Assembly: GCA_942493095.1 (NCBI GenBank)
Contig: OW818675.1
Location: 2,220,001 to 2,252,000, forward strand
Direction: 5' to 3'
Length of the DNA: 32,000 nucleotides
From: Candidatus Electronema halotolerans
Lineage (GTDB): Bacteria > Desulfobacterota > Desulfobulbia > Desulfobulbales > Desulfobulbaceae
Position 1 is the stretch's first letter; each line of letters starts with the position of its first letter. Shown here in pieces: positions 3,387-28,831 of the stretch. Below the pieces are notes generated by a model. The model worked only from the letters and a program-made list of their open reading frames with translations, was not told the DNA's origin and searched no databases. A program made the translations under genes and the position numbers.

Positions 3387-5165
3387 ATGTCTTCTGATAT
3401 ATCAAAAATTCTGATTGTTGACGACGACCTGCTCTTTGTCAACGATCTCTATGAACTGCTGAAAATCTACGATCAGTTCGACGTGCAGACCGCCACCAGC
3501 CGGGGCGAGGAGCTTTTCCTGCTCAAGCAGGAAAAAATCGCGGTGCTGGTGGTCAACCTGCAAACCTCCAGCTTAGACGGTCTGGAGGTGCTCTCGCTTG
3601 TCTCCACGTCGTACAGGCATATTCAGTGCATCGTCATGATCAATGACGGGCATCCTGCCCAGCTAAGAGCCTTGGAGAATTGCCCCTGCAAAGACTCCGT
3701 GTTCCGCTGCCTTGTCAAGCCTGACAATCTGGAGGTCATTGGTTGCGCTATTTTGGAAAGCCTGCAACGGCTGGATGAGAACGACTATCAGCCAGGCATC
3801 ACGGCCAACAAAATTGTCTCTTTTTTTGAAATTCTGCAACGAACCGCCAGAATTTCCGTCCGTTTCGGCACCAAAAAGCACGCCCTGCTCGACTTTCACA
3901 ACGGCCAGTTGATCAACTCGATCTGCGAGAAAAAACAAGGTATTGAGGCGGCCTTGGAGGTTTTTGACTGGCCGCCGCTCGGCTTTATTATTGAAAACGG
4001 GGAACCAGGCCTGGAGCGGACCATCCATCAGAAGGACCTTGAGACAATTCGGATCACCTCAAGATTGAAAAGGGAGGCTGCTCAACAAAAAAGCGGCGCA
4101 GGAGAAGAGGGGATGAGCAAGTCGGAGCAGAAGATCAGCCTGTTCATTGTTGACGACTCCAAAATGATGCGGAAAGTGATCGCCAGCATTTTCAAGGATG
4201 ATCCCTTTGTGCAGGTGGTCGGCGAGGCGGAGAACGGCGAGGAGGCGTTGCAGCTCATTCCCCAGCTTAAACCGGACGTGGTCACGCTGGATGTGGAAAT
4301 GCCAGTCATGGACGGTCTGACCACTATCAAGCATTTGATGATTCAGTCGCCCACCCCGACCGTGATGCTCAGTTCCATGACCCAGGACGGCGCGGCAGTC
4401 ACCTTTGACGCGCTTAAATATGGGGCCGTGGATTTTGTCGCCAAGCCCTCCCGCAATGCTTCGGTTGATCTGGCCGAACAGACAAGGGAAATTGCCCGCA
4501 AGGTGCATTTAGCCTCAGAAGTGGAGCTGGATGCGGTGCGCTATGTCCGGGCGGTGAACAAGGACAAGCAGGCTCGTTTTCCGTCCGGCACCCGCTGCGA
4601 AAAAATTGTCGCCATTGGCGCAGCAGAGGGCGGCTATGGCGCCATGCTCAAAATCCTGCCGCATCTTTCCCCTGAAATTCCTGCGGCCTATTTGGTCATG
4701 TTCTACGCCTCGTCCAAGCATCTGGATTCCTTTGTTGAATACATGGATCGCTTCTCGCCGCTGCGGATCCGGCGGGCGGCCAATAACATCCGCTTGGAGG
4801 CCGGGGTCTGTTATTTTGCCTCTGGCGAGGAATATCTGACCGTGCATGAACGGGAGGACGGCCTGATTCTGCATCTCTCCGCCGCTCCGTTCGCCACTCA
4901 GCGCGGCTCCATCAACATGCTCTTTTTTTCTGTGGCTGAGGTGATACGGGATGATGCGGTGGCGGTCATTCTTTCCGGCGTGGGCGAAGACGGCACCGAA
5001 GGCATGGCCGAAATTTTGCGGGTGGGCGGCGCAGGCATTGTCCAAGATCCCTCCGGCTGCCTGTACCGTGACATGCCGTGGTCGGTGTCAGCACATTGCC
5101 GGGAGGCCGCTGTGCTGCCGGACGGAGAAATATCGGACACCATCAACGGCATTCTGGCGGCATGA
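3387..5165 (+). CDS. Four-domain chemosensory protein: pseudo-receiver (Asp->Asn), PATAN/DUF4388-like module, receiver, and CheB-type methylesterase-like domain lacking the catalytic Ser and His
   Basis: 592-aa ORF.
- REC1 (aa ~6-125) has ILIVDDD and LVKP, but the phospho-acceptor position reads VLVVNLQ (Asn57, AAC at 3555-3557).
- aa ~135-205 (FFEILQ...LLDFHNGQLINS...QGIEAALEVFDWPPLGF) resemble PATAN/DUF4388.
- REC2 (aa ~248-355) is canonical: FIVDDS, DVVTLDVEMPVMDG, MLSS, DFVAKP.
- The C-terminal domain aligns with CheB, but IGASTGG becomes IGAAEGG and TQHMP becomes MFYAS. SGVGEDG keeps the Asp. Confidence 0.85.
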   Translation: MSSDISKILIVDDDLLFVNDLYELLKIYDQFDVQTATSRGEELFLLKQEKIAVLVVNLQTSSLDGLEVLSLVSTSYRHIQCIVMINDGHPAQLRALENCPCKDSVFRCLVKPDNLEVIGCAILESLQRLDENDYQPGITANKIVSFFEILQRTARISVRFGTKKHALLDFHNGQLINSICEKKQGIEAALEVFDWPPLGFIIENGEPGLERTIHQKDLETIRITSRLKREAAQQKSGAGEEGMSKSEQKISLFIVDDSKMMRKVIASIFKDDPFVQVVGEAENGEEALQLIPQLKPDVVTLDVEMPVMDGLTTIKHLMIQSPTPTVMLSSMTQDGAAVTFDALKYGAVDFVAKPSRNASVDLAEQTREIARKVHLASEVELDAVRYVRAVNKDKQARFPSGTRCEKIVAIGAAEGGYGAMLKILPHLSPEIPAAYLVMFYASSKHLDSFVEYMDRFSPLRIRRAANNIRLEAGVCYFASGEEYLTVHEREDGLILHLSAAPFATQRGSINMLFFSVAEVIRDDAVAVILSGVGEDGTEGMAEILRVGGAGIVQDPSGCLYRDMPWSVSAHCREAAVLPDGEISDTINGILAA

Positions 5166-5419: not shown

Positions 5420-8400
5420 ATGAAAAGAACGCAGCGATTCACCACCACGGGCTGGGGACTCCGGGGAAAGCTGGTCGCCCTGCTCCTTGTCATTGGACTG
5501 CTCCCCTTCGCCATCAGCGCGTTGGTTTCCTACTATCAGTCCTCCAACGCGCTTGTCCAAGCCGCGCAGGAGAGGCTGGAGGCCCTCCGGCAGCTCAAAA
5601 AAAATCAGATTAACAGCTACCTGACCGAGCGTGCGAACGACATCAGCACCTTGGCGGAAATTGTCCATTCGCTCCGTGCTGACGCTATTGCCAAGAACAA
5701 CGCGCTCATGGCGACCAAGAGAGCCGCGCTTGAACGGTACTTTGGCAAGCGTTTTGCTGAGATTCAAGGCATCGCCGACAGTCCGACCACAGTCAGCGCC
5801 ATGCAGGAGTTCAACAGCACCTTCCATGAGGAGGGCGACCGGGTTGGCGGCAGCATGTGGAACGGCTACAAGGAGAAGTACGCGCCGTGGTACAATGTCT
5901 ATTTGGACAAGCATGGCTACCATGACGTGTATCTGATTGATTCGGACGGCAACATCGTCTTCACTGCCGCCGGACTGGCTGACTTGGGCCAGAACGTGCT
6001 CAGAGGCTCGCTCAAGGAGTCCGGTCTGGGCCGTCTCTTTGCCAAGGCCACGAAAGAGCCGATCTTGGAGGACTATACCTCGTATGCTCCGGCAGGCAAC
6101 AAGCAGGTCATGTTCGTTGGCGCGCCGGTCATGGCCGATGGCGCGGTCATCGGCGTGGCCGCCCTCCAGCTCTCCACGGCTGAGATCAACGGCATCGTGC
6201 AGGAGCGCGAGGGCATGCGTTCCTCGTTTGAGACCTTCCTCGTTGGTGACAAAGCCAATCCGACCCTGCGCAGTGACCGCGTGGTCAATGCAGGTAAAAT
6301 CGGCGATCCCAAAAACGATCCCAAAAACGACAAGGAGTCGTACGAAGTTCTGTCCGGCAAGAGCGGTGTTGAATACAAGGTCGGCCCGCAAGGCGAGTTC
6401 CAGATCGCGGTTTATGAACCGGTCAATCTGCCGGGCCTGAACTGGGGCCTGGTCACCACAGGCACCTTTGCTGAGGCGGTTGTGCCGCAGGCGGCAGGCG
6501 AGGCTGACGACCTGCTGACCAAGGTCATGAAGGCCTATAACTACTATGACATCTTCCTGATCGACCCGACTGGCTTCATTTTCTACTCTGGTAAAAAAGA
6601 GGCTGACTTTGAGACCAATATCATGACCGGCAAGTACAGCAGCAGCAACTTGGGCCGGATAATCAACAAAGTTGCCAGCACCAGAAAGCTCCAATTTGCC
6701 GACTTTGAGCGCTATGCCCCGTCAGACAACGCCCCTGCCTCCTTCATGGCCGGGCCGGTTCTTGACAAGGGCGAGCTGGTGGCCATCTTTGCCGTGCAGC
6801 TGCCGACCTCGGACATCAACGAGATCATGACTGAGGCCACTGGTCTGGGTGAGACGGGTGAGACTTATTTGGTCGGCCCGGACAAGGTACTCCGGTCTGA
6901 CTCCCGTCTGGTCACTGATGCCAAAATTCTGACCAAAGAGATTGACACGAAGGCAACCCAGGCTGCGTTGAATGAGCGCAAGAGCGGTGTTGACATGATC
7001 ACCGACTACCGGGGCAAGGAGGTTCTTTCCGCTTATGCGCCGCTGGATTTGAAAGATGTTGTTGGCGCGGATTTTGAGTGGGCCATCCTCGCTGAGGTTG
7101 ACACTGCCGAGGCTCTTGCCGCTGCCAACCGGATTCGTAACTACTCCATCATCGGTGCTCTTGTCATTGGTCTTGTCGTGGCCATGCTGGCGTGGTTCAT
7201 CGGTGGCGCATTTGCCGCGCCCATCGTCTCCATCGCCGAAGTTGTCCGGCAGGTTGCTGCGGAGCGGGATTTGACCCTTGAGGTGCCTGTCGCTTCGGGT
7301 GACGAGGTCGGGCAGATGGCTGCTGAGTTCAACGCCATGCTCGCCGAGTTGAACAAATCCTTCCGCGAGGTTGAGCAGGTGTCGCAGAGGGTTGCCCGCA
7401 ACGCTCAGGACGTGGCAGGCCGCGCTTCTGCCAACCGTGACCGTGCTGAGATCGAGGTGAAGCAGTCTGAGAAAACTCGTGAGCTGATTCAAACAATGGG
7501 TTCCACGGCGGCGCAGGTTGCTGACGGTGCCCGCGCCCAGCAGCAATCAGCCCAGAAATCCCAGCGCACCATTGCCGAGCTGCTCAGTTCGATGAACACA
7601 GTTAGCGCGGCGGTTATCAAGCAGTCTGAAGAGGCCGAGACTGCCACCGACCGTGTGGCCGCAATGGGTCAGACAGGTGCGATGGTTGTGGCGACCTCTG
7701 GTGAGCAGGGCAAGATGGTTATGCAGGTGACTGCCTCCATGAACGAGATCACCTCTGCTGTACGGAACATGGGCAAGGCGGTTGACGATGCCACCCAGCA
7801 GGGTCAGGAATCGCTCAAGGCCGCCAACCAGGGTCGTGTTGCGGTTGAAAACACAGTTGCTGGTATGCGCGCCATTGCTGACTCCTCCGGTCAGATTTCT
7901 GAAATCATCGGCGTTATCACCGAGATCGCGGAGCAGACCAACTTGCTGGCTCTGAACGCCGCGATTGAGGCCGCCCGTGCCGGCGCGCATGGTAAAGGTT
8001 TCGCGGTTGTTGCGGACGAGGTTGGTAAGCTGGCCCAGCGTTCCTCTGAAGCTGCCAAGGAGATCACCCAGCTGATCAAGGACTCCACGGCCAAGGTTGA
8101 GGAGGGTACTCGCTATTCCGAGGAACTTCAAGGCGCGCTGGCATTGATTGACTCCAGCGGTCGTAACAACATGAAGTCAATTGAGGAAATCGCCTCGGTT
8201 GCCCAGGTTGTGGAGCGGGATATTCAGAGTGTTCAGGGCTTGGTTCAGGAGCTGAACAAACTGGCCGAGCAGATCTCGAAAATGGCTGGTGAGCAGGGTG
8301 ACCGTCGTAAAGCTGCTGAGGGTGCTCTCTCGTCCATGGTGCAGCAGTCTCAGATCATCAGTGCGCTGGTTGCTGAAGCCACCGCAGGCTCGTCCGCGAT

Positions 8401-8620
8401 TGACGGCGAGATGCGCGAGATTGTGACCCGCACTGAAAAGCTGACCGAAATGGTCGCGGCCCAGCGGGAGCGTTCCGCCAACGCGACCAAGATTGCCCAG
8501 CAGTCGTTCGAGGGTGCGCAGAAAACGGTGGAAGGAGCTGGTGTGGTTGTGTCGATTACCGACGATCTGACAAGTGCTTCCGCAAGGCTGCGGGAGCAGG
8601 TTGAGCAGTTCAAGCTGTAA
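5420..8620 (+). CDS. Methyl-accepting chemotaxis protein with a ~540-aa duplicated Cache-like periplasmic region, a HAMP domain and an unusually long signalling domain
   Basis: 1066-aa ORF with a GAAGGAGAGG Shine-Dalgarno 5-6 nt upstream. TM1 is [19 protein letters not shown] and TM2 is [31 protein letters not shown] domain follows ([13 protein letters not shown]). The hairpin core [41 protein letters not shown] is highly conserved. There is no C-terminal NWETF-type pentapeptide; the protein ends EQVEQFKL. Confidence 0.93.
6305..6330 (+). repeat. Perfect in-frame 12-bp tandem duplication (GATCCCAAAAAC x2, plus GA) inside the MCP sensor region
   Basis: Read directly from the sequence: 6305-6316 equals 6317-6328. 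It encodes DPKNDPKND. Confidence 0.9.
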
Positions 8621-8736: not shown

Positions 8737-9249
8737 ATGGCTGAAGGATTTGCAGCCGACAGGACAGCTGACCGGGAAGAAAAAGAACAGCTCATGCAGC
8801 TGGTCGGCTTCACCATCGGCAAGGAACAGTTTGGCGTTGACATACTCATGGTGCAGGAGATCATCCGCTCCGCTCCGATCACCTCAGTGCCCAATTCTCC
8901 AGACTTTATTGAAGGAGTCATCAACCTTCGCGGCAACATCATTCCGGTCATTGAGCTGCGCAAGCGGCTGGGGCTTTTTCGGAAGGAGAGCGCGACTAAG
9001 GATTCTTGGATTCTGATTCTCGACATTGATGGCCGGGTCACGGGCTTTATTGTCGATTCCGTGACCAAGGTTCTGAAAATTATGGAAAGCACAATTGAGC
9101 CGCCGCCCGAGGTGGTCATGGCCGGTCTGGCCAACCGCTACATCAAAGGCGTTTGCGATATTGGCAACGCCCTCCTCATCCTCCTTGATTTCAACCGGAT
9201 TCTGATGGCGGATGAATTACGGAAGCTCAGTTCAATCAGCGGAGAATAG
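8737..9249 (+). CDS. cheW: Chemotaxis coupling protein CheW
   Basis: 170-aa ORF with an AAGGAGA Shine-Dalgarno 7 nt upstream. FTIGKEQFGVDILMVQEIIR...VPNSPDFIEGVINLRGNIIPVIELRKRLG is the canonical CheW signature. Confidence 0.93.
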   Translation: MAEGFAADRTADREEKEQLMQLVGFTIGKEQFGVDILMVQEIIRSAPITSVPNSPDFIEGVINLRGNIIPVIELRKRLGLFRKESATKDSWILILDIDGRVTGFIVDSVTKVLKIMESTIEPPPEVVMAGLANRYIKGVCDIGNALLILLDFNRILMADELRKLSSISGE

Positions 9250-9255
9250 ATCAAG

Positions 9256-9621
9256 ATGAGCAAACGGGTTCTGGTTGTCGATGACTCTTCGATGATGCGC
9301 AAGATGATTGTCAAGCTGCTCCAGCCGCCAGGGCACATTGTCGTCGGGCAGGCCAAGAACGGCATCGAGGCCATCCAGCTCTACAAGGAGTTGAAGCCGG
9401 ATATTGTGACTATGGATATCACCATGCGCGACATGGACGGACTTGAGGCGGCCAAGGAGATTCTCCGCCACGACAAGGATGCCCATATCATCTTTCTCTC
9501 CAATTTGGATGAGGAGATTTACCGGGCTGAGGTGGAGAAGCTCGGCGCGCTCGGTTTTGCCAGCAAGCACAAGGCCAAAGAGATTCTGGAAATGATTGAG
9601 GAGGAGGACGGAAAGCACTGA
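9256..9621 (+). CDS. cheY: Single-domain response regulator, CheY-like
   Basis: 121-aa ORF with VLVVDDSSMMRK, DIVTMDITMRDMDG (phospho-acceptor Asp), IIFLS and FASKHK. It starts 6 nt after cheW. Confidence 0.9.
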   Translation: MSKRVLVVDDSSMMRKMIVKLLQPPGHIVVGQAKNGIEAIQLYKELKPDIVTMDITMRDMDGLEAAKEILRHDKDAHIIFLSNLDEEIYRAEVEKLGALGFASKHKAKEILEMIEEEDGKH

Positions 9622-9623: not shown

Positions 9624-10268
9624 ATGGATGGGGAGGAGCGGCTGCCGCCTCAGAACGGCGGCCCCGCGCATCTGAAGAAACCTTGTCACGGATTTTCGCC
9701 TATGTCCACCTTGTTCCGGGCGGCAGAGAGCCTGAGCCTGAAGACGAGGGCCTTTTTTTTCTATGGCCTGACCGTCCTGCTGACCCTGCTTGCCGCAGCC
9801 GGGGTTGTCTATGAACACGGCCTGACTCTGCTGCTGCTCGCACTGCTCATAGCTGTTCAGACTGCGGCCTTGTTTGTTTTTCATCATTATGTGCTCAAGC
9901 CGCTTGCCCATGTCCATGCCGCCACCCGGCAGATGACAGACGGCCATCTGGACATCTTGGCCCGCATCGCCCGGCAGGATGAGATAGGCCGTCTGGGAGA
10001 GAGCATCAATGATCTGGCAGTTAACATGCAGGAAGTGCTGCTTTTTGTCTGGAACCACAGTCAGCAGAGCCGCGAACTGTTCGACCAGACCGCTGAACGG
10101 CTGGCTGCGCCGGAGCCGCTGCCGACCATTCAGGATAATTTAAAAAAAATGCGCCAGAACAACGAAGATTTGAAGGCCATTGTCCTGTCCTTCAGTTATT
10201 TTGAGATCCGGCTGGAGCATGAACGGATGCTGGCCGAATCTGACTGCGGCAATGACGGACAGGGCTGA
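9624..10268 (+). CDS. Membrane protein with two TM helices and a HAMP domain but no recognisable output domain
   Basis: 214-aa ORF. TM helices are FFFYGLTVLLTLLAAAGVV and LTLLLLALLIAVQTAALFVF. A HAMP-like segment follows (LKPLAHVHAATRQMTDGHLDILARIARQDEIGRLGESINDLAVNMQE), then a ~80-aa helical tail. The start is uncertain: ATG 9624 lies 2 nt after the cheY stop, and the alternative is ATG 9702 (MSTLF...). Confidence 0.65.
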   Translation: MDGEERLPPQNGGPAHLKKPCHGFSPMSTLFRAAESLSLKTRAFFFYGLTVLLTLLAAAGVVYEHGLTLLLLALLIAVQTAALFVFHHYVLKPLAHVHAATRQMTDGHLDILARIARQDEIGRLGESINDLAVNMQEVLLFVWNHSQQSRELFDQTAERLAAPEPLPTIQDNLKKMRQNNEDLKAIVLSFSYFEIRLEHERMLAESDCGNDGQG

Positions 10269-10359
10269 AAAAAAAGAGAACGCAGCGCAGCAGCCAGCAA
10301 GAGTCGCGCCGGAGAGGCCGTAACAACTCGGATTGTCAAACTGTACCAGGGTGATCAAG

Positions 10360-13300
10360 ATGATAGACACGTCAATGCTGCCTGATTTTATCATTGAGGC
10401 GCAGGAACATCTGGAGGAGATGGAAGGCAGCCTGCTTCGCCTTGAGCAGCATAAGGGCGGGGACTATCGGGAGATTATGGATGAAATCTTTCGCTCCGCC
10501 CACACCATCAAAGGCGCGGCCCAGTTTGTCGGCATTGACCGGATTGCTGAACTGTCTCACAAGCTGGAAAATCTGCTGGACCTGATCCGCAAGGGCGCGC
10601 AGTCGCTGACCCCGGCGGTCACAGACCTGCTGATTGAGGGCAAGGACCGAATCACCCAGTTGGTCGAGGAGCTGGAAAGCAGCCAGAATGAGGAGTCTGA
10701 GGTGGAGGATCTGCTGATCCGCATCCGCCGGATTGTTGAAGGAGATGCTGCCGAAGAGCCGGAGGAGACAGCTGAAGCAGTCCCGCCGGAGCCGCCTGCC
10801 GAGGAGGAGGAAGAGGAGCCGCAACGTGGCTCGCTGGCTGAAGAAAGCATGAATGAGGAGCATGATGAGGAGCTGTACAACATCTTCCTCCAGCAGCTCA
10901 AGGAAAATATCCCGTTCCTCTATGCGCAGACAGTCGAGCTGTCCCTGTCCGTTGACAAGCAGGATGTGCTCTACCGGTGCGGCGACTCCATCAAGAGCCT
11001 GAAGTCTTCAGCCAATTACATGGGCTATGAAAAGCTGGCCAAGCACTATTCCGACTGGCAGACGGAAATCAGCCGGGCCATTGAGCAGCTCTCCTCCGGC
11101 AAGATGCCTGATCTTGCCTTTATGCAGGAATATATTGATGAAATTATCCGTTCCTTCCCGCAGGCCATGGAAGGCTACGAGCAGGAGGAGAACAAGGGGT
11201 ATGAGGGTGGTCCTCTCCTCCGGCAGGATGAGGCGGCAGTGGAGTCGGATTTTGACCGCTTCTTTGATCAGTCCGATGATGAGGAAGATGAGGACGAAGC
11301 TGCCGCGCCTGCGGAGCCATTGGCCACGGATCTGGATGAAGCCTTGAAAAGCATCTTCTCTGAGGAGGATGAAGAGTCGGAGCTGCCTGCCTCGTCGTCG
11401 GCATTTGTTCCTGCCTTGGCTGAGGAAGAGGAGGAGGAGGACAGCCCTGCTGCTGCCGCGTCTTCTCCGGCGCAGGCGGCGGAACTTCCTCAACTGAAAC
11501 ATGAGATGGACGGGGAGGAGCATGACCAGGAGCTGGTCTCCATTTTTTTAAGAAAACTCCAGACAGATATCCATTTTATCAAGAGCCAGGCTGAACAGCT
11601 TCCTGCTGCTGCGGACAAGCAGGCGCTTGTGCAGGACTGTCAGGACGCGGTGGCTCGGCTGGCTTCTTCAGCCAATTACATGGAATATCAAAGTCTGGCC
11701 ACTTTTTGCAGCGTATGGCGGCAGGCCTTGCAGGAAGATGCGGAACGGCTGGACACTGATGAGGACACTGAACAGGCTGTTGCCACCCTGCGCCGTTTTG
11801 CAGAAGAAATTATTCGTGTTTATCCGCAGGCGGCGGAGAACGACAGAGCTGAGGAAAAACAGCCGCAGAAGGCTGAGGCCAAGGAGCCTGCTGCGGCCAA
11901 GGTTGAGGAGCAGCCGCCTGCCAGTGCTGCTCCGTCTGCTGAGGAAAAGCAGGACGACGCTGACGAAGAAGTGCCTCCGCTGCCGCCTCAACCTGCTGCT
12001 GAGGCTGAGGAGGAGCAGGAGGAGACAGCGGAAGATGATCAGGAGCTGTTCAGCCGCCTCAGCAGTGCCTTGGAGCAAAACATGTCCCAAAGCGGCACGG
12101 CCCTGCCTGATGATCATGTTGACAGCGTGATTGAGCAGATCATGGACAAGCAGGATGGCAAAGAGGTGGCTGCGCCAGTGCCTCCGCCTGAAGCGGATGA
12201 GGGAGAGGAGCTGGCTGAAGGAGCCGCTGCCCTGCTCTCCAAGCCGCAGCCTTCGCCAGCGGAAAAAAAGAAAAAAGCATTGCCAGCCGCTGTTGCTACT
12301 CCGCCGCAGGAGGAGAAGAAGGCGGATGCGCAAGAGCCGAAGTCTGAAGCCGAGAAAAAGGAGCAGGCGCAAGCTGATCATGCCGTGCCTGAGCCGCCTG
12401 CTGCGGCCAAAAAAGTCACGACAGACGAGAAGTCGGAACAGCCGCTTGTTCCTGATGCCTTGGAGGAAGAGGCTGGAGAGGAAGAGGCGGAAGCTGAAAC
12501 AGAGGAGAAGCAGGCCGCAAGCACTGCGAAAAAGCCGAGCGCCCGCAGCAGCATCCGAGTTGATGCCGACAAAATCGACTACCTGATGAATCAGGTCGGG
12601 GAGCTGGTTGTCAGCAGGGCCTATTTCGCCCAGTTAGTCAACGAGATGCGCAGCTTGCAGCAGGAGCTGATGGAAAAATCCCGTCTGAGCAAAGGCGAGA
12701 TGAAGCCGCTGCATGAATTTGCCTTCCGTCTCAGCGAGGCAGGCGTGCATCTGGGCCGGGTCTCGAACGAGCTGCAGGAAGGCGTGATGAAGATCAGAAT
12801 GCTGCCCATAGAGCAGCTCTTCAAGCGCTATCCCCGGCTGGTACGCGATCTGACCCACCGGACAGACAAGGATGTCCGCCTGATCACCAAAGGCGAGGAA
12901 ACTGAGCTGGATAAAATGGTCATCGAATCCATGTCTGATCCGCTGATCCATATTATCCGCAATGCGGTCGATCATGGCATTGAGACCACAACGGAACGGA
13001 AACAGCTCGGCAAGCCCGCGCAAGGCTCGCTGCTTCTCGAAGCCTACCACGAGAGCGATCATATTGTCTTGGAAATCACTGATGACGGCAGAGGCATCGA
13101 CCCGCAGCGCATCCGGGCCAAGGCGGCGGCAAAGGGCCTGTACACCAGCGAGGAGCTGGCCCGCATGTCTGATCTGGAAGTGCTCCGCATCATCATGGAG
13201 CCGGGCTTCAGCACTGCTGAGAAGGCCACCGAGACCTCAGGCCGGGGCGTGGGCATGGATGTGGTCAAAAAGAACATCGAACGCCTGAACGGCATGATCG

Positions 13301-13869
13301 AGATCAGCTCCAAGCCTGGCAAAGGCACGAGGATGCGGATCAAGATTCCGCTGACCATGGCCATCATCCAAGCCCTGATGGTCCGGGTGGGCCGGGAGAA
13401 ATTCACCATTCCGCTGACCACGGTTGAGGAGACCCTGCGCATTTTCCGCCATGAAATTTCCGTGATCGAAGGCGTGGATGTCATCCATATCCGCGACATC
13501 ACCATGCCCATTTTCCGTCTGGACAAAATTTACCATATCAACCGCGCCGAGGAGGATGAGGAGAAAATGTTCGTGGTCGTGGTCAGCACCGGCACCCAAG
13601 AAGTGGGTTTGGTTGTTGATGAGCTCCTTGGCCAGGAGGAGGTGGTCATCAAGCCGCTCGCTGACTACCTGCGGCAGGAAAGCGGTTTTGGTGGAGCCAC
13701 CATTCTCGGTGACGGCGGCATCTCGCTGATTCTTGACATTCCTGAATTAGTCAAGCTGGCTGCTGACGATCAGGCCGACAGGCAGGAGGAGCGGGCCAGA
13801 ACCTACCAGCGCAAACGGCGGAAACGGGCAGCAGGCACTGAGGCGGCGCAGGCGCAGACTGCGCAGTAA
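10360..13869 (+). CDS. cheA: Chemotaxis histidine kinase CheA with one canonical Hpt, two His-less Hpt-like repeats, a long low-complexity linker, and dimerisation, HATPase and CheW-like P5 domains
   Basis: The ORF track opens at TTG 10333. ATG 10360 (MIDTSMLPDF) is preferred.
- Hpt: FRSAHTIKGAAQFVG, with the His codon CAC at 10501-10503.
- Dimerisation domain: SIRVDADKIDYLMNQVGELVVSRA.
- N-box: DPLIHIIRNAVDHGIE.
- G1: ITDDGRGID.
- G2: TSGRGVGMDVV.
- P5: ALMVRVGREKFTIPL...VGLVVDELLGQEEVVIKPL. Confidence 0.93.
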   Translation: MIDTSMLPDFIIEAQEHLEEMEGSLLRLEQHKGGDYREIMDEIFRSAHTIKGAAQFVGIDRIAELSHKLENLLDLIRKGAQSLTPAVTDLLIEGKDRITQLVEELESSQNEESEVEDLLIRIRRIVEGDAAEEPEETAEAVPPEPPAEEEEEEPQRGSLAEESMNEEHDEELYNIFLQQLKENIPFLYAQTVELSLSVDKQDVLYRCGDSIKSLKSSANYMGYEKLAKHYSDWQTEISRAIEQLSSGKMPDLAFMQEYIDEIIRSFPQAMEGYEQEENKGYEGGPLLRQDEAAVESDFDRFFDQSDDEEDEDEAAAPAEPLATDLDEALKSIFSEEDEESELPASSSAFVPALAEEEEEEDSPAAAASSPAQAAELPQLKHEMDGEEHDQELVSIFLRKLQTDIHFIKSQAEQLPAAADKQALVQDCQDAVARLASSANYMEYQSLATFCSVWRQALQEDAERLDTDEDTEQAVATLRRFAEEIIRVYPQAAENDRAEEKQPQKAEAKEPAAAKVEEQPPASAAPSAEEKQDDADEEVPPLPPQPAAEAEEEQEETAEDDQELFSRLSSALEQNMSQSGTALPDDHVDSVIEQIMDKQDGKEVAAPVPPPEADEGEELAEGAAALLSKPQPSPAEKKKKALPAAVATPPQEEKKADAQEPKSEAEKKEQAQADHAVPEPPAAAKKVTTDEKSEQPLVPDALEEEAGEEEAEAETEEKQAASTAKKPSARSSIRVDADKIDYLMNQVGELVVSRAYFAQLVNEMRSLQQELMEKSRLSKGEMKPLHEFAFRLSEAGVHLGRVSNELQEGVMKIRMLPIEQLFKRYPRLVRDLTHRTDKDVRLITKGEETELDKMVIESMSDPLIHIIRNAVDHGIETTTERKQLGKPAQGSLLLEAYHESDHIVLEITDDGRGIDPQRIRAKAAAKGLYTSEELARMSDLEVLRIIMEPGFSTAEKATETSGRGVGMDVVKKNIERLNGMIEISSKPGKGTRMRIKIPLTMAIIQALMVRVGREKFTIPLTTVEETLRIFRHEISVIEGVDVIHIRDITMPIFRLDKIYHINRAEEDEEKMFVVVVSTGTQEVGLVVDELLGQEEVVIKPLADYLRQESGFGGATILGDGGISLILDIPELVKLAADDQADRQEERARTYQRKRRKRAAGTEAAQAQTAQ

Positions 13870-13938
13870 GCAGGCGGCTTGCTGGTGAAGACGCAGGCTT
13901 CGCCTGTTCATCGCATGGAGGCTGAAAACAGGAGCGGC

Positions 13939-14970
13939 ATGGACAGAAAATATAAAGTTCTTGTGGTGGATGATGCCACCTTCATGACCAAGGCGATCAG
14001 CGATCTGCTGGAATCTGATCCTGAGATCGAAGTCATTGGCGTGGCGCGCAACGGTCTGGAAGGGCTGAAAAAAATCAAGGAGCTGCATCCTGATGTCATC
14101 ACGCTGGACATTGACATGCCAGTGATGGACGGACTACAGGCCATCCGGCACATCATGATCGAGTCGCCAGTGCCGATTGTGGTGCTCAGTTCTTTGTTCA
14201 GTGACGGCTCCATCACCTTTGAAGCCCTGCGGCTGGGCGTGGTTGATTTTGTCGCCAAGCCTTCCGGGGCCATATCAAGCGACATTCATGTGGCCAAGCA
14301 GCAGATTGTCGGCAGGATCAAATTAGCCACTGCGGTCAATTTTCAAAACATCCGCCGGGTGCGGGTCAAACCGCAGCCGCAGCAGGCAGGAGAAAAGGAA
14401 AATTCCAGCTTCAGCTCCATGCTGGTCATTGGCACCTCGCTCACCGGGCCGAATTCCTTTATTCGGCTGATGACCCGGCTGGAGGCGGGCCTTTCCGCCG
14501 CCGCCGTGATCATGCTGGAGATTTCGCCCAAGATTCTCCATGCCTTTGTTGAACGCTTCAATGAGTTCACAAGCTGGAAAATTGCTGTGGCCGAGCATGA
14601 CAAAATTCTCAAGCGGGGAGTCTGTTATATTCAGTCCAACCTGCATTCGCTGACAGTGGCGTTCAACGAATACGGCGATCCCTGCTTCAAAACCGGCGCG
14701 CCGACAACCAATCCCTTGGACACCTTGTTTGTTTCCGCTGCCGAGATATTTGCTGAAAAAACCGTCGGGGTGCTGCTGACCGGGTACGGTGATGACGGCT
14801 CTGAGGGCTTTGCCGCCATTCAGGCCAAAGGCGGTACCACCATTGTCCAAAGCGTGGAGAGCTGCATCTATCCGAATCTGGCGGCAATGGCCATTCAACG
14901 CAAGCTGGTGGACATGGCTGTGGAAGAGGACAAACTTGCTGAAGCCATCAGTTCAGTCATAAAAAAATAA
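13939..14970 (+). CDS. REC-CheB-type protein with the catalytic His replaced (His190-equivalent is Glu)
   Basis: The ORF track opens at TTG 13879. ATG 13939 (MDRKYKVLVVDD) has a CAGGAG motif 4 nt upstream. The receiver is canonical (DVITLDIDMPVMDG, VVLSS, DFVAKP). In the esterase domain, IGTSLTG retains the Ser, TQHMPPGF is MLEISPKI, and TGYGDDG keeps the Asp. Confidence 0.85.
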   Translation: MDRKYKVLVVDDATFMTKAISDLLESDPEIEVIGVARNGLEGLKKIKELHPDVITLDIDMPVMDGLQAIRHIMIESPVPIVVLSSLFSDGSITFEALRLGVVDFVAKPSGAISSDIHVAKQQIVGRIKLATAVNFQNIRRVRVKPQPQQAGEKENSSFSSMLVIGTSLTGPNSFIRLMTRLEAGLSAAAVIMLEISPKILHAFVERFNEFTSWKIAVAEHDKILKRGVCYIQSNLHSLTVAFNEYGDPCFKTGAPTTNPLDTLFVSAAEIFAEKTVGVLLTGYGDDGSEGFAAIQAKGGTTIVQSVESCIYPNLAAMAIQRKLVDMAVEEDKLAEAISSVIKK

Positions 14971-15012: not shown

Positions 15013-15927
15013 ATGATCATCACATGTGAACAGTGCAAGACCAGATACAAGCTCGCTGACAGCATGCTGGACAAACCGGAGCTGAAGGTGCGCTGTCATA
15101 AATGCGGCTTCCGCTTCACCGTGCAGCGTCCTGCTTTGGCTGAAGAGTCGATTCTGCTCCAAGATGAGCTGCATCCTGACTACAGCCGGATCATTGCGGT
15201 CAGCAATCAGAAGGGCGGAGTGGCCAAGACCACCACCTGTCTCAATCTTGGCGCGGCCTTTGCCAAAATGGGCAAAAAGGTCCTGCTGATTGACTTTGAC
15301 GTGCAGGCCAATCTGACCGTTCTCCTCGGCCTGCGCGGCGTGAAAACCTTTTACGATGTCTTGAGCGGCGGTGTCAAAAAAATTGGCGAGGCTGTGGTGC
15401 GGACCAAATATCCCAACATTTCCCTGCTGCCCTCCAGCAGCAGAATGGCTCTGCTGAAAAAACAGTATCTCAGCCAGCACAACTTTGAATACCTGCTCCG
15501 CGACCGGCTGAAAAGCATCCAGGACAACTATGACCATATTTTGATCGATACGCCGCCCTCGATTGAATTTTTCACCCTCAACGCCTTGGTGGCCGCCAAC
15601 TTAGTCATCATCCCAACCACCTGCGAGTATCTCTCCATGCACGGAGTCAGTCAGGTGCATGACATCATCAAAGTGCTGAAGAAACGAGTCAACCAGGACG
15701 TGGAATGCAAGGTGCTGATCACCATGCGCAACTCCAAAAGCACCTCGGAAAAGGTGATTTACGGCAAGCTGCGCCAGACCTGCGGCGACAGTCTCTTCAG
15801 AAGCGTGATTGATGCGGATGACCAGATGCAGGAATCCCATATTGTCAATGCCCCGCTCAGTTATTACGCGGAAAACAGCCGGGCGGCCAAGCAGTACATG
15901 CAGCTTGCTGAGGAAATTGCCGGATGA
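15013..15927 (+). CDS. ParA/MinD-family P-loop ATPase with an N-terminal MJ0042-type CxxC...CxxC zinc ribbon
   Basis: 304-aa ORF. The N-terminus MIITCEQCKTRYKL...VRCHKCGFRFTV is a zinc ribbon. It is followed by the deviant Walker A IIAVSNQKGGVAKTTT, then VLLIDFDVQANLT and ILIDTPPS. Confidence 0.85.
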   Translation: MIITCEQCKTRYKLADSMLDKPELKVRCHKCGFRFTVQRPALAEESILLQDELHPDYSRIIAVSNQKGGVAKTTTCLNLGAAFAKMGKKVLLIDFDVQANLTVLLGLRGVKTFYDVLSGGVKKIGEAVVRTKYPNISLLPSSSRMALLKKQYLSQHNFEYLLRDRLKSIQDNYDHILIDTPPSIEFFTLNALVAANLVIIPTTCEYLSMHGVSQVHDIIKVLKKRVNQDVECKVLITMRNSKSTSEKVIYGKLRQTCGDSLFRSVIDADDQMQESHIVNAPLSYYAENSRAAKQYMQLAEEIAG

Positions 15928-16688
15928 GCGCGCTTGCTGAAAAAATCGCCCCCTTTCTCTCCTTTACTGTTCTGATCATTGCCTGGGAGCTGGCGGTCCG
16001 TCTCGGCGGCCTGAACACCAATTCCCTGCCCAGCCCCAGTCAGGTTTTTCTCAGCATGATTGAGCTGATCCGCAACGGAGCCATTTTCAAGCACACCGTG
16101 GCCAGTCTCTTCCGGGTCACTGCCGGATTTTATTTGTCCGCCCTACTCGGCATTCCCATCGGCATCATTCTTGGCCGAAGTCAGACCTTGGCCATGCTCT
16201 TCAATCCGATCATTCATTTTCTCCGGCCCATTTCTCCGCTGGCATGGATTCCTTTAGCCATGCTCTGGTTCGGCATCGGCGATCAGCCAGCCATTTTTCT
16301 CATCTTTCTGTCCAGCTTTTTTCCGATTGTGGTCTCCACTGCCGTGGCCGTGCAGTCCATCAATCCGACCTATTTTCATGTGGCTGCCAACTTTGACTTC
16401 AGCCGGACCGAGGTGATTGCAAAAATTGTCATTCCAGCAATTGTTCCCGACATCATCACTGCCCTCCGTCTGACCGTGACCATTTCTTGGATCGTGGTGG
16501 TGGCGGCGGAAATGATCGCGGTGCAGTCCGGGCTGGGCTATTTGATTCTTGATGCCCGCAACGGCCTGCGCATGGATTATGTCTTGGACGGCATGATTGT
16601 CATCGGCCTGATCGGCATTTTTCTTGATGCCATCATGCGGCGGCTGGGCCAGATTGATTCCGCCTCCTGGGGCATCCGCCAGATGTGA
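15924..16688 (+). CDS. ABC transporter permease, NitT/TauT (nitrate/sulfonate/taurine/bicarbonate) family
   Basis: 254-aa polytopic ORF of SsuC/TauC/NrtB type (six predicted TM helices, ...VVVAAEMIAVQSGLGYLILDA...). The start overlaps the parA-like stop (ATGA). Confidence 0.8.
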   Translation: MSALAEKIAPFLSFTVLIIAWELAVRLGGLNTNSLPSPSQVFLSMIELIRNGAIFKHTVASLFRVTAGFYLSALLGIPIGIILGRSQTLAMLFNPIIHFLRPISPLAWIPLAMLWFGIGDQPAIFLIFLSSFFPIVVSTAVAVQSINPTYFHVAANFDFSRTEVIAKIVIPAIVPDIITALRLTVTISWIVVVAAEMIAVQSGLGYLILDARNGLRMDYVLDGMIVIGLIGIFLDAIMRRLGQIDSASWGIRQM

Positions 16689-16699
16689 AGGAAAGCATA

Positions 16700-17494
16700 A
16701 TGGGACATATTCAAATATCAGGCCTGAACAAGGACTTTGTCAATCGCCGCCACACCAAGCGCGACGATGACCCGGCCCATTTTGGCCAAGTGGTGCCGGT
16801 GCTGGAGGACATCAACATTGAGATTGAGGACGGCGAGATGGTCTGCTTCCTCGGTCCCTCTGGCTGCGGCAAATCCACCCTGATGCGCATTGTCGCGGGC
16901 TTTGACCGGCAAAGCTCCGGTTCGGTCAAGATTGACGGCCAGGAAATCACCGGCCCCAGCTCAGACAACATCTTTGTTTTTCAGCACAGCGGCCTGCTGC
17001 CGTGGATGACAGTCTGGCAGAATGTGGAGCTGGGTCTGCGCAATATGGAGGACAAAAACGAGCAGTGCGAAAAAATTCAGGAATACATCGAAATGGTTGA
17101 GCTGGAAGGCTTTGAGGATCACTATCCGCATCAGCTTTCCGGCGGCATGCTGCGCCGGGCCGAGCTGGCCCGCGCCTTGGTGGTCAACCCGGACATCCTG
17201 ATCATGGACGAGCCGTTCAGCGGCCTCGACTTCCTCACCCACATGAAGCTGCGCGAGGAAGTGGTCAACATGCACCAGTTTCTTGGCAAGACCATTCTTG
17301 TTGTCACCCACGACATTGACGATGCCTTGGTCATGGGCGACCGAATTATTGTCTTCAGCCGCAGACCCTCGCAGATCAAGATGAACCGCAAGCTCGACTT
17401 TCCCCATCCGCGCAATTTCTTCAAGAAGAATCACGGATTAGCCAAACTGCGGGATGAGCTGTTCTTCATGCTGGGAGTGAACTATGCGGTTTAA
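16700..17494 (+). CDS. ABC transporter ATP-binding protein, NitT/TauT family
   Basis: Walker A is GPSGCGKST, the signature is LSGGMLRRAELARAL, Walker B is ILIMDEPFSGLD, and the H-loop is VTHD. ATG 16700 is preceded by AAGGAAAG. The ORF track opens at GTG 16685, overlapping the permease stop. Confidence 0.9.
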   Translation: MGHIQISGLNKDFVNRRHTKRDDDPAHFGQVVPVLEDINIEIEDGEMVCFLGPSGCGKSTLMRIVAGFDRQSSGSVKIDGQEITGPSSDNIFVFQHSGLLPWMTVWQNVELGLRNMEDKNEQCEKIQEYIEMVELEGFEDHYPHQLSGGMLRRAELARALVVNPDILIMDEPFSGLDFLTHMKLREEVVNMHQFLGKTILVVTHDIDDALVMGDRIIVFSRRPSQIKMNRKLDFPHPRNFFKKNHGLAKLRDELFFMLGVNYAV

Positions 17495-18587
17495 GCAGAA
17501 ATTGCTCCTCGGCTGGCTGAAGAGAATTGCTACGCTTTACAGGCTGGCGCTGACTTCTTGGCGAAAACTGGCCCAAGGCTGGCGGCTGACAGTCGGCGCA
17601 GTCGTCTGGCTGATCCTGATCTCAGTGCTTCATTTCTGGCTCAATTTTGATCACGGCAGCCGCCAGATTGTCGCAATGGGCTACATGCCGGTCATCACCA
17701 ATATGGCAGCCCCGCTTTTAGACTATGTGAGCAAGGACAAAGGCGATATTTATTTTAAAGCCCTCAAGTTCAGCGCCTTTGCCGAAATGGCCGAGGCCCT
17801 GCGCAATGACGAGATTCAGGCCGCCTTCATCATTGCCCCGCTCTCCATCGTGCTCCGGCAGCAGGGCGAGGATGTGAAGGTGGTCTATATCGGCAACCGC
17901 CATGAAAGCTCCTTGGTGGCGAGAAAAAGCCTCCACATCAGCAGTGAGTCCAGCGTGGCCGGCAAACTGCGCGGCCTGATCGGCAAAACCGTGGCTGTGC
18001 CCATGCGTTTTTCCGGCCATAACCTCAGTCTGCGGGAGCTGATGGACAAATATGGTCTGACTGGCCAGATCAACATTGTGGAGATGAATCCGCCGGACAT
18101 GGCTTCAGCCTTGGCCAGCAAATCTGATCTGGCTGCCTACTATGTCGGCGAGCCATTCGCCTCCAAAACGTTGAAGAACGATCTTTCTGACTTGGTCTTT
18201 CATGTGGAGGAGGTCTGGCCTTCGTTCATCTGCAATTTAGTCCTTGTCAAACAGAGCACCATTGACCGGGACCCGGAGGCAGTGCGGCGGCTGGTGGAGG
18301 GAGCGGCCCGCTCCGGCCTCTGGGCGGAAACGCATCAGGATCAGGCGGCGGCAATATCGGCCCAATACTGGTCGCAGCCTGCGGACTTGGTGAAATATGC
18401 GCTTCAGGGGAGAAAAGTGATTTTTGATCAATATCTTCCCAAAGAGAAAGAGATGCAGGAAATTGCCGACCTGATGGTCAAGCATGGCCTGATTGAGGAC
18501 AACAGGATTGACGGGCTGGTTGACGCTCACTTTGCCGCTGCGGTGAAAAAGGAGCCTGTTGACAGCTTGGATGCTATTTTGCCGTAA
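17484..18587 (+). CDS. ABC transporter substrate-binding protein (NMT1/SsuA/NrtA-like) with an uncleaved N-terminal membrane anchor
   Basis: 367-aa ORF with a TM anchor (VGAVVWLILISVLHFWL). It then reads VAMGYMPVITNMAAPLL...FAEMAEALRNDEIQAAFIIAPL, typical of NitT/TauT-family binding proteins. It overlaps the ATPase gene by 11 nt. Confidence 0.72.
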   Translation: MRFKQKLLLGWLKRIATLYRLALTSWRKLAQGWRLTVGAVVWLILISVLHFWLNFDHGSRQIVAMGYMPVITNMAAPLLDYVSKDKGDIYFKALKFSAFAEMAEALRNDEIQAAFIIAPLSIVLRQQGEDVKVVYIGNRHESSLVARKSLHISSESSVAGKLRGLIGKTVAVPMRFSGHNLSLRELMDKYGLTGQINIVEMNPPDMASALASKSDLAAYYVGEPFASKTLKNDLSDLVFHVEEVWPSFICNLVLVKQSTIDRDPEAVRRLVEGAARSGLWAETHQDQAAAISAQYWSQPADLVKYALQGRKVIFDQYLPKEKEMQEIADLMVKHGLIEDNRIDGLVDAHFAAAVKKEPVDSLDAILP

Positions 18588-18604
18588 CAAAAGGAAGATG
18601 GACT

Positions 18605-19027
18605 ATGACCGCTGTGAAAACGGAAAACAGACGCAAAGCTCCCAGACTTGAACGGCAGGCAGCCCTGCTCGTCACCAAGCTCCAGTATCCCATGACCAAT
18701 CTGGAGGCCAAGCCCGCAGTCACGAAAAATCTGGCTGAACACGGCCTCTGCTTCACGGCTGGCGAGCTGTATGAGCCAGGAGCGATCCTCCAGCTTGCCA
18801 TTGACCTGCGCGGCTGGCAGCAGTATCTGAACAATATTATTGCGGTGCTCGACACCGGCTCGGTGTCCAAACCGCTGACCGCCATTGCCGAGGTGATCTG
18901 GGCCCAGCAGCTCCAAGACAAGGAGCAGTACGAGATTGGAGTCCGTTTCAAGGATATTTACGAAGACGATTTGAAAGCCTTTAAACAATATTTGACCAAG
19001 CTGTTCAGTCAGCAGGAGCAGGACTGA
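18605..19027 (+). CDS. PilZ-domain protein (putative c-di-GMP receptor)
   Basis: 140-aa ORF. It has an RxxxR motif (RRKAPR) near the N-terminus. About 30 residues later comes N-L-A-E-H-G, which fits [D/N]-x-[S/A]-x-x-G. The C-terminal YEIGVRFKDI is typical of PilZ barrels. Confidence 0.65.
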   Translation: MTAVKTENRRKAPRLERQAALLVTKLQYPMTNLEAKPAVTKNLAEHGLCFTAGELYEPGAILQLAIDLRGWQQYLNNIIAVLDTGSVSKPLTAIAEVIWAQQLQDKEQYEIGVRFKDIYEDDLKAFKQYLTKLFSQQEQD

Positions 19028-19040
19028 CAGACTGAGCAGC

Positions 19041-19577
19041 ATGAATTTCCTTCCCAAAAGCGGCCTGCAGCGCCAGATGGGGTTTTATATTCTTTTCATC
19101 GGCATTGTCTTCCTGACCATGGCCGTGGAAATGGAACGCTTTCTTCGCGGCGACGAGGTGCTGGGCCTGCTTCAAGAACAGATGGGCAGCAGGCCGGCGC
19201 TGGAGCTGGTGGGGCTGATTCTGCTCAAAGTCCGGGTGATGGCGAGCATTCTTCTCTTGGCCATTGGTCTGGTGATGATGCTCTTCATCAAGCGGATACT
19301 TTTTCCCTTGGAGCAGATCATCGAGCGGACACGGGCGATGAGCGCAGGTGACTTTTCCGTGGCCCTGCCTGAAGAGAGCAAAGACGAGCTGGGCGAGCTG
19401 GCCCGGCATATCAATGATCTGAACGCCAATGAGCAGGAGCTGATCCTGTTGGTGAAAAACATGGCCGAGCAGCTCCGTCTGACCTTGGCGAAAGGCGACG
19501 TTGATGAGGCTATGGAGCTGCTCAACGAGCTGGACGAGACACTGGCTGAATTTGGCAGGAGCTTTTATCGGTGCTGA
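19041..19577 (+). CDS. Second membrane protein with two TM helices and a HAMP domain, no output domain (paralogue of 9624..10268)
   Basis: 178-aa ORF with TM helices FYILFIGIVFLTMAV and ILLLAIGLVMMLFI. The HAMP segment is LFPLEQIIERTRAMSAGDFSVALPEESKDELGELARHINDLNANEQE. It shares the pattern L-x-PL...TR-x-M-x-x-G...DE-x-G-x-L...INDL-x-x-N-x-QE with the 9624 protein. Confidence 0.68.
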   Translation: MNFLPKSGLQRQMGFYILFIGIVFLTMAVEMERFLRGDEVLGLLQEQMGSRPALELVGLILLKVRVMASILLLAIGLVMMLFIKRILFPLEQIIERTRAMSAGDFSVALPEESKDELGELARHINDLNANEQELILLVKNMAEQLRLTLAKGDVDEAMELLNELDETLAEFGRSFYRC

Positions 19578-24348: not shown

Positions 24349-24356
24349 GATATTTC
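24349..24356. repeat. Target-site duplication, right copy (GATATTTC)
   Basis: It is identical to 22855-22862. Confidence 0.9.
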
Positions 24357-28819: not shown

Positions 28820-28831
28820 GCTTCTTCCTCC

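Follow-up and report, generated by a model that had tools for sequence, protein, structure and literature searches.

A conserved four-domain regulator with a CheB fold lacking its nucleophile in a che-like cluster of a cable bacterium

Results

A gene in the 32-kb window (the whole stretch of DNA analyzed, 32,000 nucleotides) codes for a protein that joins a pseudo-receiver (REC1), a PATAN/DUF4388-like domain, a canonical receiver (REC2), and a CheB-fold domain without the esterase nucleophile. The odds are about even, in our judgment, that this protein is a non-catalytic chemosensory response regulator, derived from a REC-PATAN protein fused to a REC-CheB-like protein that already lacked the nucleophile. 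The start codon is at the same position in aligned homologs. An AlphaFold2 model of the whole protein has a mean pLDDT of 85.8, with values below 50 over aa 233–247, around the linker between PATAN and REC2. The four domains of the original prediction, and every substitution that it named, were borne out by Pfam scans, alignments, and hhalign. The source of the gene is a cable bacterium, Candidatus Electronema. The gene and its parts are as follows.

3387..5165, forward strand: target gene, pseudo-receiver, PATAN, REC, and dead CheB domains, 592 aa, ATG start (ORF and domain scans)
3402..3776, forward strand: REC1, pseudo-receiver, aa 6–130 (Pfam and receiver alignment)
3795..4094, forward strand: PATAN/DUF4388-like domain, aa 137–236 (homolog profiles, hhalign, AlphaFold2)
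4095..4133, forward strand: low-confidence linker, aa 237–249 (AlphaFold2 model)
4134..4517, forward strand: REC2, canonical receiver, aa 250–377 (Pfam and family alignment)
4602..5159, forward strand: CheB-fold domain without nucleophile, aa 406–591 (Pfam, 1A2O alignment, Foldseek)

REC2 and the CheB-fold domain

The phospho-acceptor pocket of REC2 is intact. It retains Asp256, Asp257, Asp302 (GAT, 4290–4292), Ser329, and Lys353, none of which varies across the family. This full canonical residue set confirms the predicted true second receiver. C-terminal to this receiver is a CheB_methylest fold (PF01339, 127.6 bits). In alignment with Salmonella CheB (1A2O), the catalytic triad Ser164-His190-Asp286 reads Ala413/Tyr440/Asp535. 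Ser164 is replaced by Ala413 (4623–4625; GAAEGG in the target, GASTGG in CheB), with Glu414 in place of Thr165, and His190 is replaced by Tyr440 (4704–4706; FYAS versus QHMP), while Asp286 is kept as Asp535 (4989–4991; GEDG versus GNDG). The Ser-to-Ala and His-to-Tyr changes expected of this domain are thus both present. NCBIfam thresholds for CheB were not reached (NF001965, 283.4 versus 293 bits; NF009206, 244.9 versus 342 bits). REC2 and the CheB-fold domain superpose on full-length CheB (1A2O and 6YMZ) with target-normalized TM-scores of 0.86–0.88 and Foldseek E values of ~1e-30, and in the model REC2 packs against the CheB fold in a CheB-like manner. Overall, the target shares with CheB of Salmonella and E. 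coli a full-pocket receiver followed by the CheB_methylest fold, the modeled packing of the two, and a gene position beside MCP, CheW, and CheA genes. It differs from CheB in the two triad substitutions, an extra N-terminal REC-PATAN half, a score below the NCBIfam CheB cut-off (283 versus 293 bits), and the lack of a nearby CheR.

REC1 pseudo-receiver

REC1 matched Pfam Response_reg over aa 8–93 (36.6 bits, E 5.4e-9) and was modeled with a pLDDT of ~90 over aa 6–130. It retains the acidic pair and the conserved Lys that had been read from the sequence (Asp12, Asp13, and Lys111). The acceptor position is occupied by Asn57 (AAC, 3555–3557), also as predicted, in the alignment column that holds Asp57 of CheY, Asp302 of REC2, the Asp of the CheY encoded in the window, and the REC1 Asp of distant homologs. 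A nearby Asp standing in for position 57 was ruled out by the same alignment, in which Asp64 is the ordinary 'MDG' position. REC1 therefore has a receiver fold without the acceptor Asp. One addition to the original prediction is Ile85 (3639–3641), which occupies the position of the switch Thr (Thr87). Comparison across the family suggests that Asp-to-Asn in REC1 is a later change, found mainly in cable bacteria. Myxococcus FrzS has a pseudo-receiver domain in a protein tied to surface motility; its likeness to REC1, a receiver fold without the phospho-acceptor, is one of analogy only.

PATAN/DUF4388 domain

The segment between the two receivers had been described as PATAN-like, which holds at the profile level and does not hold for the target alone at Pfam thresholds. 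When the full-length sequence was scanned directly against Pfam and NCBIfam, PATAN was not matched, and the isolated segment scored 13.2 bits against DUF4388 (PF14332, PatA_N; E 0.093), below the cut-off of 25. Homologs and profiles were needed for the assignment because the target alone is sub-threshold in Pfam. DUF4388 was matched at E ≤ 1e-3 by 18 of 33 full-length family members (best, 7.5e-8) and by all eight sampled distant four-domain members (E down to 1.5e-19). A profile of the middle domain aligned to the bona fide DUF4388 of a paralog in the window (20348–21739) with an hhalign probability of 96.8% (E 2.3e-10). We therefore assign the middle domain to PATAN/DUF4388 at the profile level and through homologs only. 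With these homolog matches to DUF4388 and the target's own match to CheB_methylest, both domain families named in the original prediction are represented.

Gly173, Leu175, Ala188, and Trp195 are invariant in the PATAN-like domain. Its predicted fold is alpha-beta-beta-beta-alpha-beta plus a long helix (AlphaFold2, pLDDT 81.9). Searches of PDB sequences with the domain profile returned nothing at E ≤ 10, and Foldseek searches of the PDB with the model gave no match at E ≤ 1e-3; those ranked highest, such as fragments of MutL and GyrB, were noise. No solved PATAN structure for comparison was found by either search.

Family, conservation, and origin

The four-domain architecture defines a family conserved in Desulfobacterota, with ~40 clusters at 50% identity, including one from Desulfonema limicola. 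A genome-collection scan with a single peptide pattern (ILIVDDDxxF) gives a lower bound on its taxonomic spread. The architecture had been flagged as unfamiliar, and literature searches indeed found no published description of a PATAN-CheB fusion or of a catalytically dead CheB, but it is no one-off given dozens of 50%-identity clusters.

At the nucleophile position, every four-domain member of the target's subfamily has Ala or Gly, and nearly all of the wider set have Ala, Gly, Pro, or Asp. Loss of the nucleophile is family-wide, and Ser-to-Ala is, as far as these alignments indicate, ancestral to the four-domain family. The canonical S-T-H-D set occurs in 44 of 91 two-domain REC-CheB representatives. 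Two apparent four-domain proteins with S-T-H-D contain no PATAN and were rejected as members. Ala and Ser switch freely at this position among close short relatives, some of which keep Ser and a few of which (P0076 and P0089) keep Ser, His, and Asp together.

These patterns bear on whether the domain could be a non-canonical enzyme, in which a set such as Glu414, Tyr440 or His, and Asp535 hydrolyzes or deamidates receptor side chains or some other substrate. In the target's subfamily Glu414 and Asp535 are invariant and nearby glycine-rich loops are strongly conserved, which would fit such an enzyme, as would a low pN in the CheB domain and the short relatives that retain Ser or the whole triad. 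Against it stand the Ala or Gly of all four-domain subfamily members, the near-absence of Ser from the wider set, the free Ala/Ser switching, and positions 414, 440, and 535, which are not conserved in the wider four-domain family (patterns GANG, GITG, and GAAA). We consider this explanation improbable and retain the non-catalytic regulator as the preferred reading.

The target protein appears to be a gene fusion, since one locus (L057) carries both halves as neighboring genes, a REC-PatA_N protein (224 aa) and a REC-dead CheB protein (353 aa) that head the same operon. The latter is 62% identical to the C-terminal half of the target. The L057 REC-PatA_N protein and proteins at three other loci (L005, WOR-3; L006, Deferrimicrobium; L007, Desulfobacterales) share the target's N-terminal module of a receiver followed by PATAN. 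They differ from it in having true Asp acceptors and other or no C-terminal regions, without fusion to REC-dead CheB.

Values of pN are 0.03–0.19 across the four domains, compared to a saturated pS of 0.6–0.9. Purifying selection thus acts on all four domains, as judged from the pN and pS contrast alone, because dN/dS ratios are unreliable with saturated synonymous sites. Sequencing error or a pseudogene was rejected, as the substitutions are common to dozens of independent sequences. Loss of catalytic and acceptor residues could also mean that the gene is a duplicated CheB decaying without a function, but the ORF is intact, relatives range from 100% to below 40% identity in many lineages, each of the four domains has a pN far lower than its pS, and the AlphaFold2 model is confident. 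Such decay is extremely improbable and is effectively refuted by the conservation data.

Gene neighborhood

The target gene is the first of a che-like cluster with genes for an MCP, CheW, CheY, a HAMP protein, CheA, and two further CheB-like proteins. Downstream features are as follows.

5420..8620, forward strand: MCP (dCache, HAMP, MCPsignal; 1066 aa), next gene downstream of the target
8737..9249, forward strand: CheW
9256..9621, forward strand: CheY, single REC domain
9624..10268, forward strand: HAMP-only protein 1, conserved within the cluster
10333..13869, forward strand: CheA (Hpt, dimerization, HATPase_c, and CheW domains; 1178 aa), presumed kinase of REC2
13879..14970, forward strand: CheB2, REC-CheB; Ser kept, His to Glu, Asp kept
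15013..15927, forward strand: ParA/MinD-like ATPase with N-terminal zinc ribbon, syntenic with che genes
15924..18587, forward strand: ABC permease, ATPase, and SsuA/TauA-like binding protein, syntenic with che genes in distant relatives
19041..20335, forward strand: HAMP-only protein 2 and TauE/SafE-family membrane protein, also syntenic
20348..21739, forward strand: CheB3, DUF4388-REC-CheB; Ser to Gly, His to Asn, Asp kept

The canonical triad is missing from CheB2 and CheB3 of the window and likewise from the orthologs of both. CheB3 and its orthologs share with the target a PATAN-REC-dead CheB core, a broken triad, and co-inheritance in one cluster, but CheB3 has no N-terminal receiver, is only ~27% identical to the target, and has a clear DUF4388 match (E 1.7e-15), unlike the target itself. 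The che-like system is conserved at four related loci (L001, L057, L058, and L059), and no CheR domain was found at these or in the window. Pilus genes were found neither in the window nor at any related locus examined, and no gliding genes adjoin the target gene or its counterparts there. Operon linkage is not universal, as the orthologs of the target in Electronema sp. PJ and E. aureum are not adjacent to the MCP gene.

This gene content would also suit binding-based adaptation or a phosphate sink without motor output. The phosphorylated target would bind the receptor array through its dead CheB domain and tune the kinase, replacing methylation-based adaptation without CheR, and PATAN and REC1 would only localize or oligomerize the protein. 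Binding-based adaptation is already known from CheD/CheC of Bacillus subtilis. In the cluster, one CheA is conserved alongside three CheB-like proteins whose triads are broken but whose receivers are intact, CheR is not found nearby, and a single-domain CheY is separately available for motor output. On the other side, PATAN is a demonstrated output domain in the only characterized relatives, and the REC-PATAN half stands independently in L057 and has other partner domains in L005–L007, which argues for an independent output role of this half. We view adaptation or a sink without output as rather unlikely, and favor a regulator in which PATAN contributes to output or localization.

Comparison with PatA-type regulators

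The placement of PATAN (aa 137–236) directly before a phosphorylatable receiver (REC2, aa 250–377, Asp302) in a che-like locus is shared with PatA-type regulators (PixG, PixE, and PilG of Synechocystis; PatA of Anabaena). A PatA-type regulator usually heads its che locus, and such systems are without CheB and CheR (bioRxiv 10.1101/2021.06.11.447907). The target gene is likewise the first of a locus with a plain CheY and without CheR. The target differs by carrying a further (pseudo-)receiver at its N terminus and a dead CheB domain at its C terminus, by a divergent PATAN that is sub-threshold alone, and by its host, which belongs to Desulfobacterota rather than Cyanobacteria.

PATAN binding to PilB/PilC and control of pilus motility are known only for the Synechocystis proteins. 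Anabaena PatA is located at division sites and binds divisome components, so PATAN targets can differ. Output of the target to cell-division or cell-junction machinery, as for PatA in a filamentous cyanobacterium, would link sensory input to filament growth or septum behavior. The family is represented in cable bacteria and in Desulfonema, both filamentous, and the ParA/MinD-like ATPase belongs to the cluster. Most members, however, are from metagenome-assembled genomes whose cell morphology is not recorded, which leaves the association with filaments anecdotal. The family is also part of a full che-type pathway that includes CheY, an arrangement typical of motility control. We give little credence to a division or junction output.

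Discussion

In the regulator that we favor, Asp302 would be phosphorylated by CheA, and this would alter the interface between REC2 and the CheB-fold domain, as in CheB. Presumably unable to hydrolyze methyl esters, the dead CheB domain would instead bind a partner, probably the receptor array, under the control of phosphorylation. PATAN would be the output or localization module. Its partner, by analogy with the cyanobacterial PatA-type regulators, may be the motor of type IV pili (PilB/PilC) or some other component of gliding or polarity; a type IV pilus output of the target is put forward as an analogy. In cable bacteria, where REC1 has neither its acceptor Asp nor its switch Thr, it would be a phosphorylation-independent structural or interaction domain.

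More speculatively, and with low confidence, the cluster might belong to an undescribed chemosensory class of Desulfobacterota, including cable bacteria and Desulfonema, apparently without CheR. Three phosphorylation-controlled dead CheB domains would exchange methylation-based adaptation for reversible array binding, two PATAN domains would couple the array directly to gliding or type IV pilus machinery, and a sulfur-related signal would enter the same pathway through the conserved ABC transporter, HAMP protein, and TauE module.

In textbook accounts of bacterial chemotaxis, CheB is the enzyme of adaptation. The conserved family described here retains the phospho-regulated CheB fold, has given up the nucleophile throughout, and joins the dead domain to one known to talk to a pilus motor. 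It would clearly exemplify a signaling enzyme turned signaling adaptor and points to mechanisms of adaptation or output without receptor methylation.

Gliding positions the filaments of cable bacteria across oxygen and sulfide gradients, and the che-like cluster is a concrete candidate pathway for this behavior. Cable bacteria glide, have type IV pili, and move towards oxygen (PMC12163305); our literature searches on their chemotaxis genes yielded nothing specific. The idea is testable, since a family member is present in the cultured Desulfonema limicola.

Domain layout and receiver residues

The target ORF (3387..5165, + strand) encodes a 592-aa product in which a Pfam scan identified two Response_reg stretches and one CheB_methylest match (aa 408–586, 127.6 bits). 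Scanned alone, the N-terminal receiver (REC1) scored 36.6 bits for Response_reg. Matches to NCBIfam CheB models were confined to aa ~248–587 and scored 283.4 bits, just below the curated cut-off of 293. An AlphaFold2 model constructed from a family alignment of 33 sequences was confident (mean pLDDT 85.8) and has the following layout.

Domains of the target protein (+ strand gene) in the AlphaFold2 model
aa 6–130: first receiver, REC1
aa 140–236: middle domain, compact alpha-beta-beta-beta-alpha-beta plus a long helix
aa 233–247: disordered linker
aa 250–377: second receiver, REC2
aa 406–591: CheB fold

The original prediction of a four-domain product was recovered, with the two receivers and CheB_methylest matched by Pfam and PATAN (DUF4388) matched through relatives and profiles. 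In the receiver alignment, Asn57 of REC1 (AAC, 3555–3557) shares one column with CheY Asp57, REC2 Asp302, the Asp of the in-window CheY, and the REC1 Asp of distant homologs; the E. coli CheY sequence served solely as a ruler. No nearby Asp able to substitute as acceptor was found in this alignment, and the predicted Asn acceptor position stands. REC1 retains the anticipated acidic pair and Lys (Asp12, Asp13, and Lys111), with Ile85 as the equivalent of the switch Thr. In REC2 the full five-residue signature is present (Asp256, Asp257, Asp302, Ser329, and Lys353), as expected of a true receiver.

For the segment between the receivers, the target alone is below the Pfam threshold for DUF4388 (13.2 bits, E 0.093, cut-off 25), but 18 of 33 full-length relatives matched at E <= 1e-3 (top E 7.5e-8), and DUF4388 was clear in all eight sampled distant four-domain proteins, with E as low as 1.5e-19. 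A middle-domain profile also aligned with the DUF4388 domain of CheB3, a DUF4388-REC-CheB protein in the window (hhalign probability 96.8%, E 2.3e-10), where the domain is unambiguous (Pfam E 1.7e-15). We accept the middle domain as PATAN-like on homology. No solved PATAN structure was found for comparison, as a search of the PDB with the middle-domain profile was empty and Foldseek returned nothing at E <= 1e-3, in agreement with the view that the molecular function of PATAN is still unknown (bioRxiv 10.1101/2021.06.11.447907).

Loss of the CheB nucleophile

When aligned to solved CheB structures, the target has GAAEGG in place of GASTGG and FYAS in place of QHMP, and keeps the Asp in GEDG. 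The triad positions are thus Ala413, Tyr440, and Asp535, bearing out the predicted Ser to Ala and His to Tyr changes in a CheB-like domain. In every four-domain protein among the best 120 database relatives, the Ser position is occupied by Ala or Gly and the next residue is Glu, the His position holds Tyr or His, and the third triad residue is Asp. The family was extended by searching 1.84 billion representatives exhaustively with a profile; the best 150 matches were classified by alignment coverage, then spot-checked, and include ~40 four-domain clusters (50% identity). Ser is absent from almost all of these clusters, His and Asp are absent too in many, and REC2 is intact in all. Plain REC-CheB representatives differ, with the canonical S-T-H-D in 44 of 91. 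Two S-T-H-D proteins that had looked four-domain were actually CheR-REC-REC-CheB and REC-REC-CheB, with PATAN absent. Residual non-canonical catalysis is a rival reading for a domain that keeps Asp535. Since there is no nucleophile, the most plausible role of the CheB-fold domain is as a regulated surface that binds the receptor array.

Asn57 occurs in every sampled member of the Electronema/Electrothrix clade and in one other lineage (P0044, from locus L003). The acceptor Asp is retained by most members under about 55% identity and by P0033 at 64%. Across these sequences, the acceptor and the switch Thr tend to be lost together: of 18 Asp-type members, 16 have Thr at the switch position, and of 15 Asn-type members, 11 have Ile or Leu there. 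The nearest named relatives are Ca. Electronema (80–82% identity) and Ca. Electrothrix (64–68%), which assigns the window to a cable bacterium. Other members occur in cultured Desulfonema limicola (WP_207690186.1) and in Desulfobacterales and Deltaproteobacteria MAGs, a taxonomic spread that is under-sampled.

Comparison of the window gene with Electronema orthologs revealed saturated synonymous differences (pS 0.6–0.9) and low non-synonymous differences (REC1, 0.11–0.14; PATAN, 0.05–0.19; REC2, 0.03–0.06; CheB fold, 0.06–0.09). Judged by these values, both 'pseudo' domains are under maintenance. A dead relic is effectively excluded.

A che-like cluster with three degenerate CheB-like proteins

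The target gene is preceded by truA and is the first of a co-directional che-like cluster.

Cluster after the target gene, in order
MCP (dCache-HAMP), CheW, CheY, HAMP-only protein, CheA
13879–14970: REC-CheB gene (CheB2)
15013–15927: ParA/MinD-like ATPase with an N-terminal MJ0042-type zinc ribbon, directly after CheB2
15924–20335: SsuA/TauA-type ABC transporter, second HAMP-only membrane protein, TauE/SafE-family protein
20348–21739: DUF4388-REC-CheB gene (CheB3)

No CheR domain was found across the 32-kb window. Triad positions are Ser/Glu/Asp in CheB2 and Gly/Asn/Asp in CheB3, both proteins score under the NCBIfam CheB cut-off, and their orthologs in three other loci have the same or more degraded patterns. 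By sequence, the window encodes three CheB-like proteins with intact receivers, none with a canonical triad.

The gene set (MCP, CheW, CheY, HAMP, CheA, REC-CheB, ParA-like, ABC transporter, HAMP, TauE, and PATAN-REC-CheB) recurs in whole or part in loci L001–L004 at 37–66% identity, as it does in two distant loci, L058 (D. limicola) and L059. The MCP is dCache-type in most loci, the four-domain gene has no fixed place, and CheR is absent from every one of these six.

In another relative's locus (L057), the two halves of the target are separate neighboring genes heading the operon, with a stop-rich 147-nt spacer between them. One encodes REC-PatA_N (224 aa), whose acceptor is a true Asp, and the other a 353-aa REC-CheB protein, also lacking the nucleophile, with 62% identity to the C-terminal half. 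Hence the four-domain protein is the product of a gene fusion, and joint action of its halves is implied. The REC-PATAN module also occurs with different C-terminal partners in L005–L007.

Database labels for family proteins are 'CheB' or 'response regulator'. Neither a PATAN-CheB fusion nor a triad-less CheB family turned up in the literature searched. The component domains are of known kinds; how they are combined, the consistent joining of PATAN to a dead CheB domain, and the three-paralog context without a nearby CheR are new.

Proposed function

REC2 would be the sole phosphorylatable site, with phosphate expected from the cluster's CheA, and REC1 of cable bacteria would be a frozen, non-phosphorylatable module. 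Phosphorylation of CheB remodels the interface between receiver and catalytic domain, and the target is modeled with the same packing. Cyanobacterial PatA-type systems have neither CheB nor CheR, and in Synechocystis their PATAN binds PilB1 and PilC (bioRxiv 10.1101/2021.06.11.447907). Gliding, type IV pili, and movement toward oxygen are known from cable bacteria (PMC12163305). Given the lone REC2 site, the missing nucleophile, PATAN binding in cyanobacteria, and this motility, we favor a phospho-regulated adaptor that connects the array with a target in motility or polarity; a pilus link would be by analogy only. Rival readings are a PATAN that acts on a divisome target, as PatA does, and a binding-only adaptation or phosphate sink.

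Additional observations

CheA (10333–13869) is unusually long (1178 aa), with ~600 acidic, low-complexity residues separating Hpt from the dimerization domain; its L001 ortholog has 1578 aa. The ParA/MinD-like ATPase is conserved at 60–62% identity in L003 and L004 and resembles ParA-type ATPases that position chemoreceptor clusters. Linkage of the ABC transporter, HAMP-only, and TauE/SafE genes to che genes is kept in L003, L004, L056, L058, and L059, and these genes may belong to the sensory system, whose input could then be related to sulfur.

Divergent from the split operon of L057 is a hemerythrin-domain MCP (5510–7945, - strand) that may sense oxygen for this system. The Electrothrix locus (L002) encodes another PATAN protein, cNMP-binding-DUF4388 (3919–5001), ~5 kb upstream of the four-domain gene. 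In two close relatives, Electronema sp. PJ (L061) and E. aureum (L062), no MCP follows the four-domain gene, which adjoins a toxin (PemK) or transposase-like gene and thus has moved in some Electronema genomes.

Elsewhere in the window, an N6_N4_Mtase DNA methyltransferase gene (21910–25140) is apparently split by an IS66-family transposase (22956–24326), its downstream piece carrying the end of the methylase profile and an Mrr-type restriction-endonuclease domain. Three genes at 27842–31668 (- strand) code for the NrfD membrane, 4Fe-4S, and catalytic subunits of a polysulfide/thiosulfate reductase-like molybdopterin oxidoreductase.
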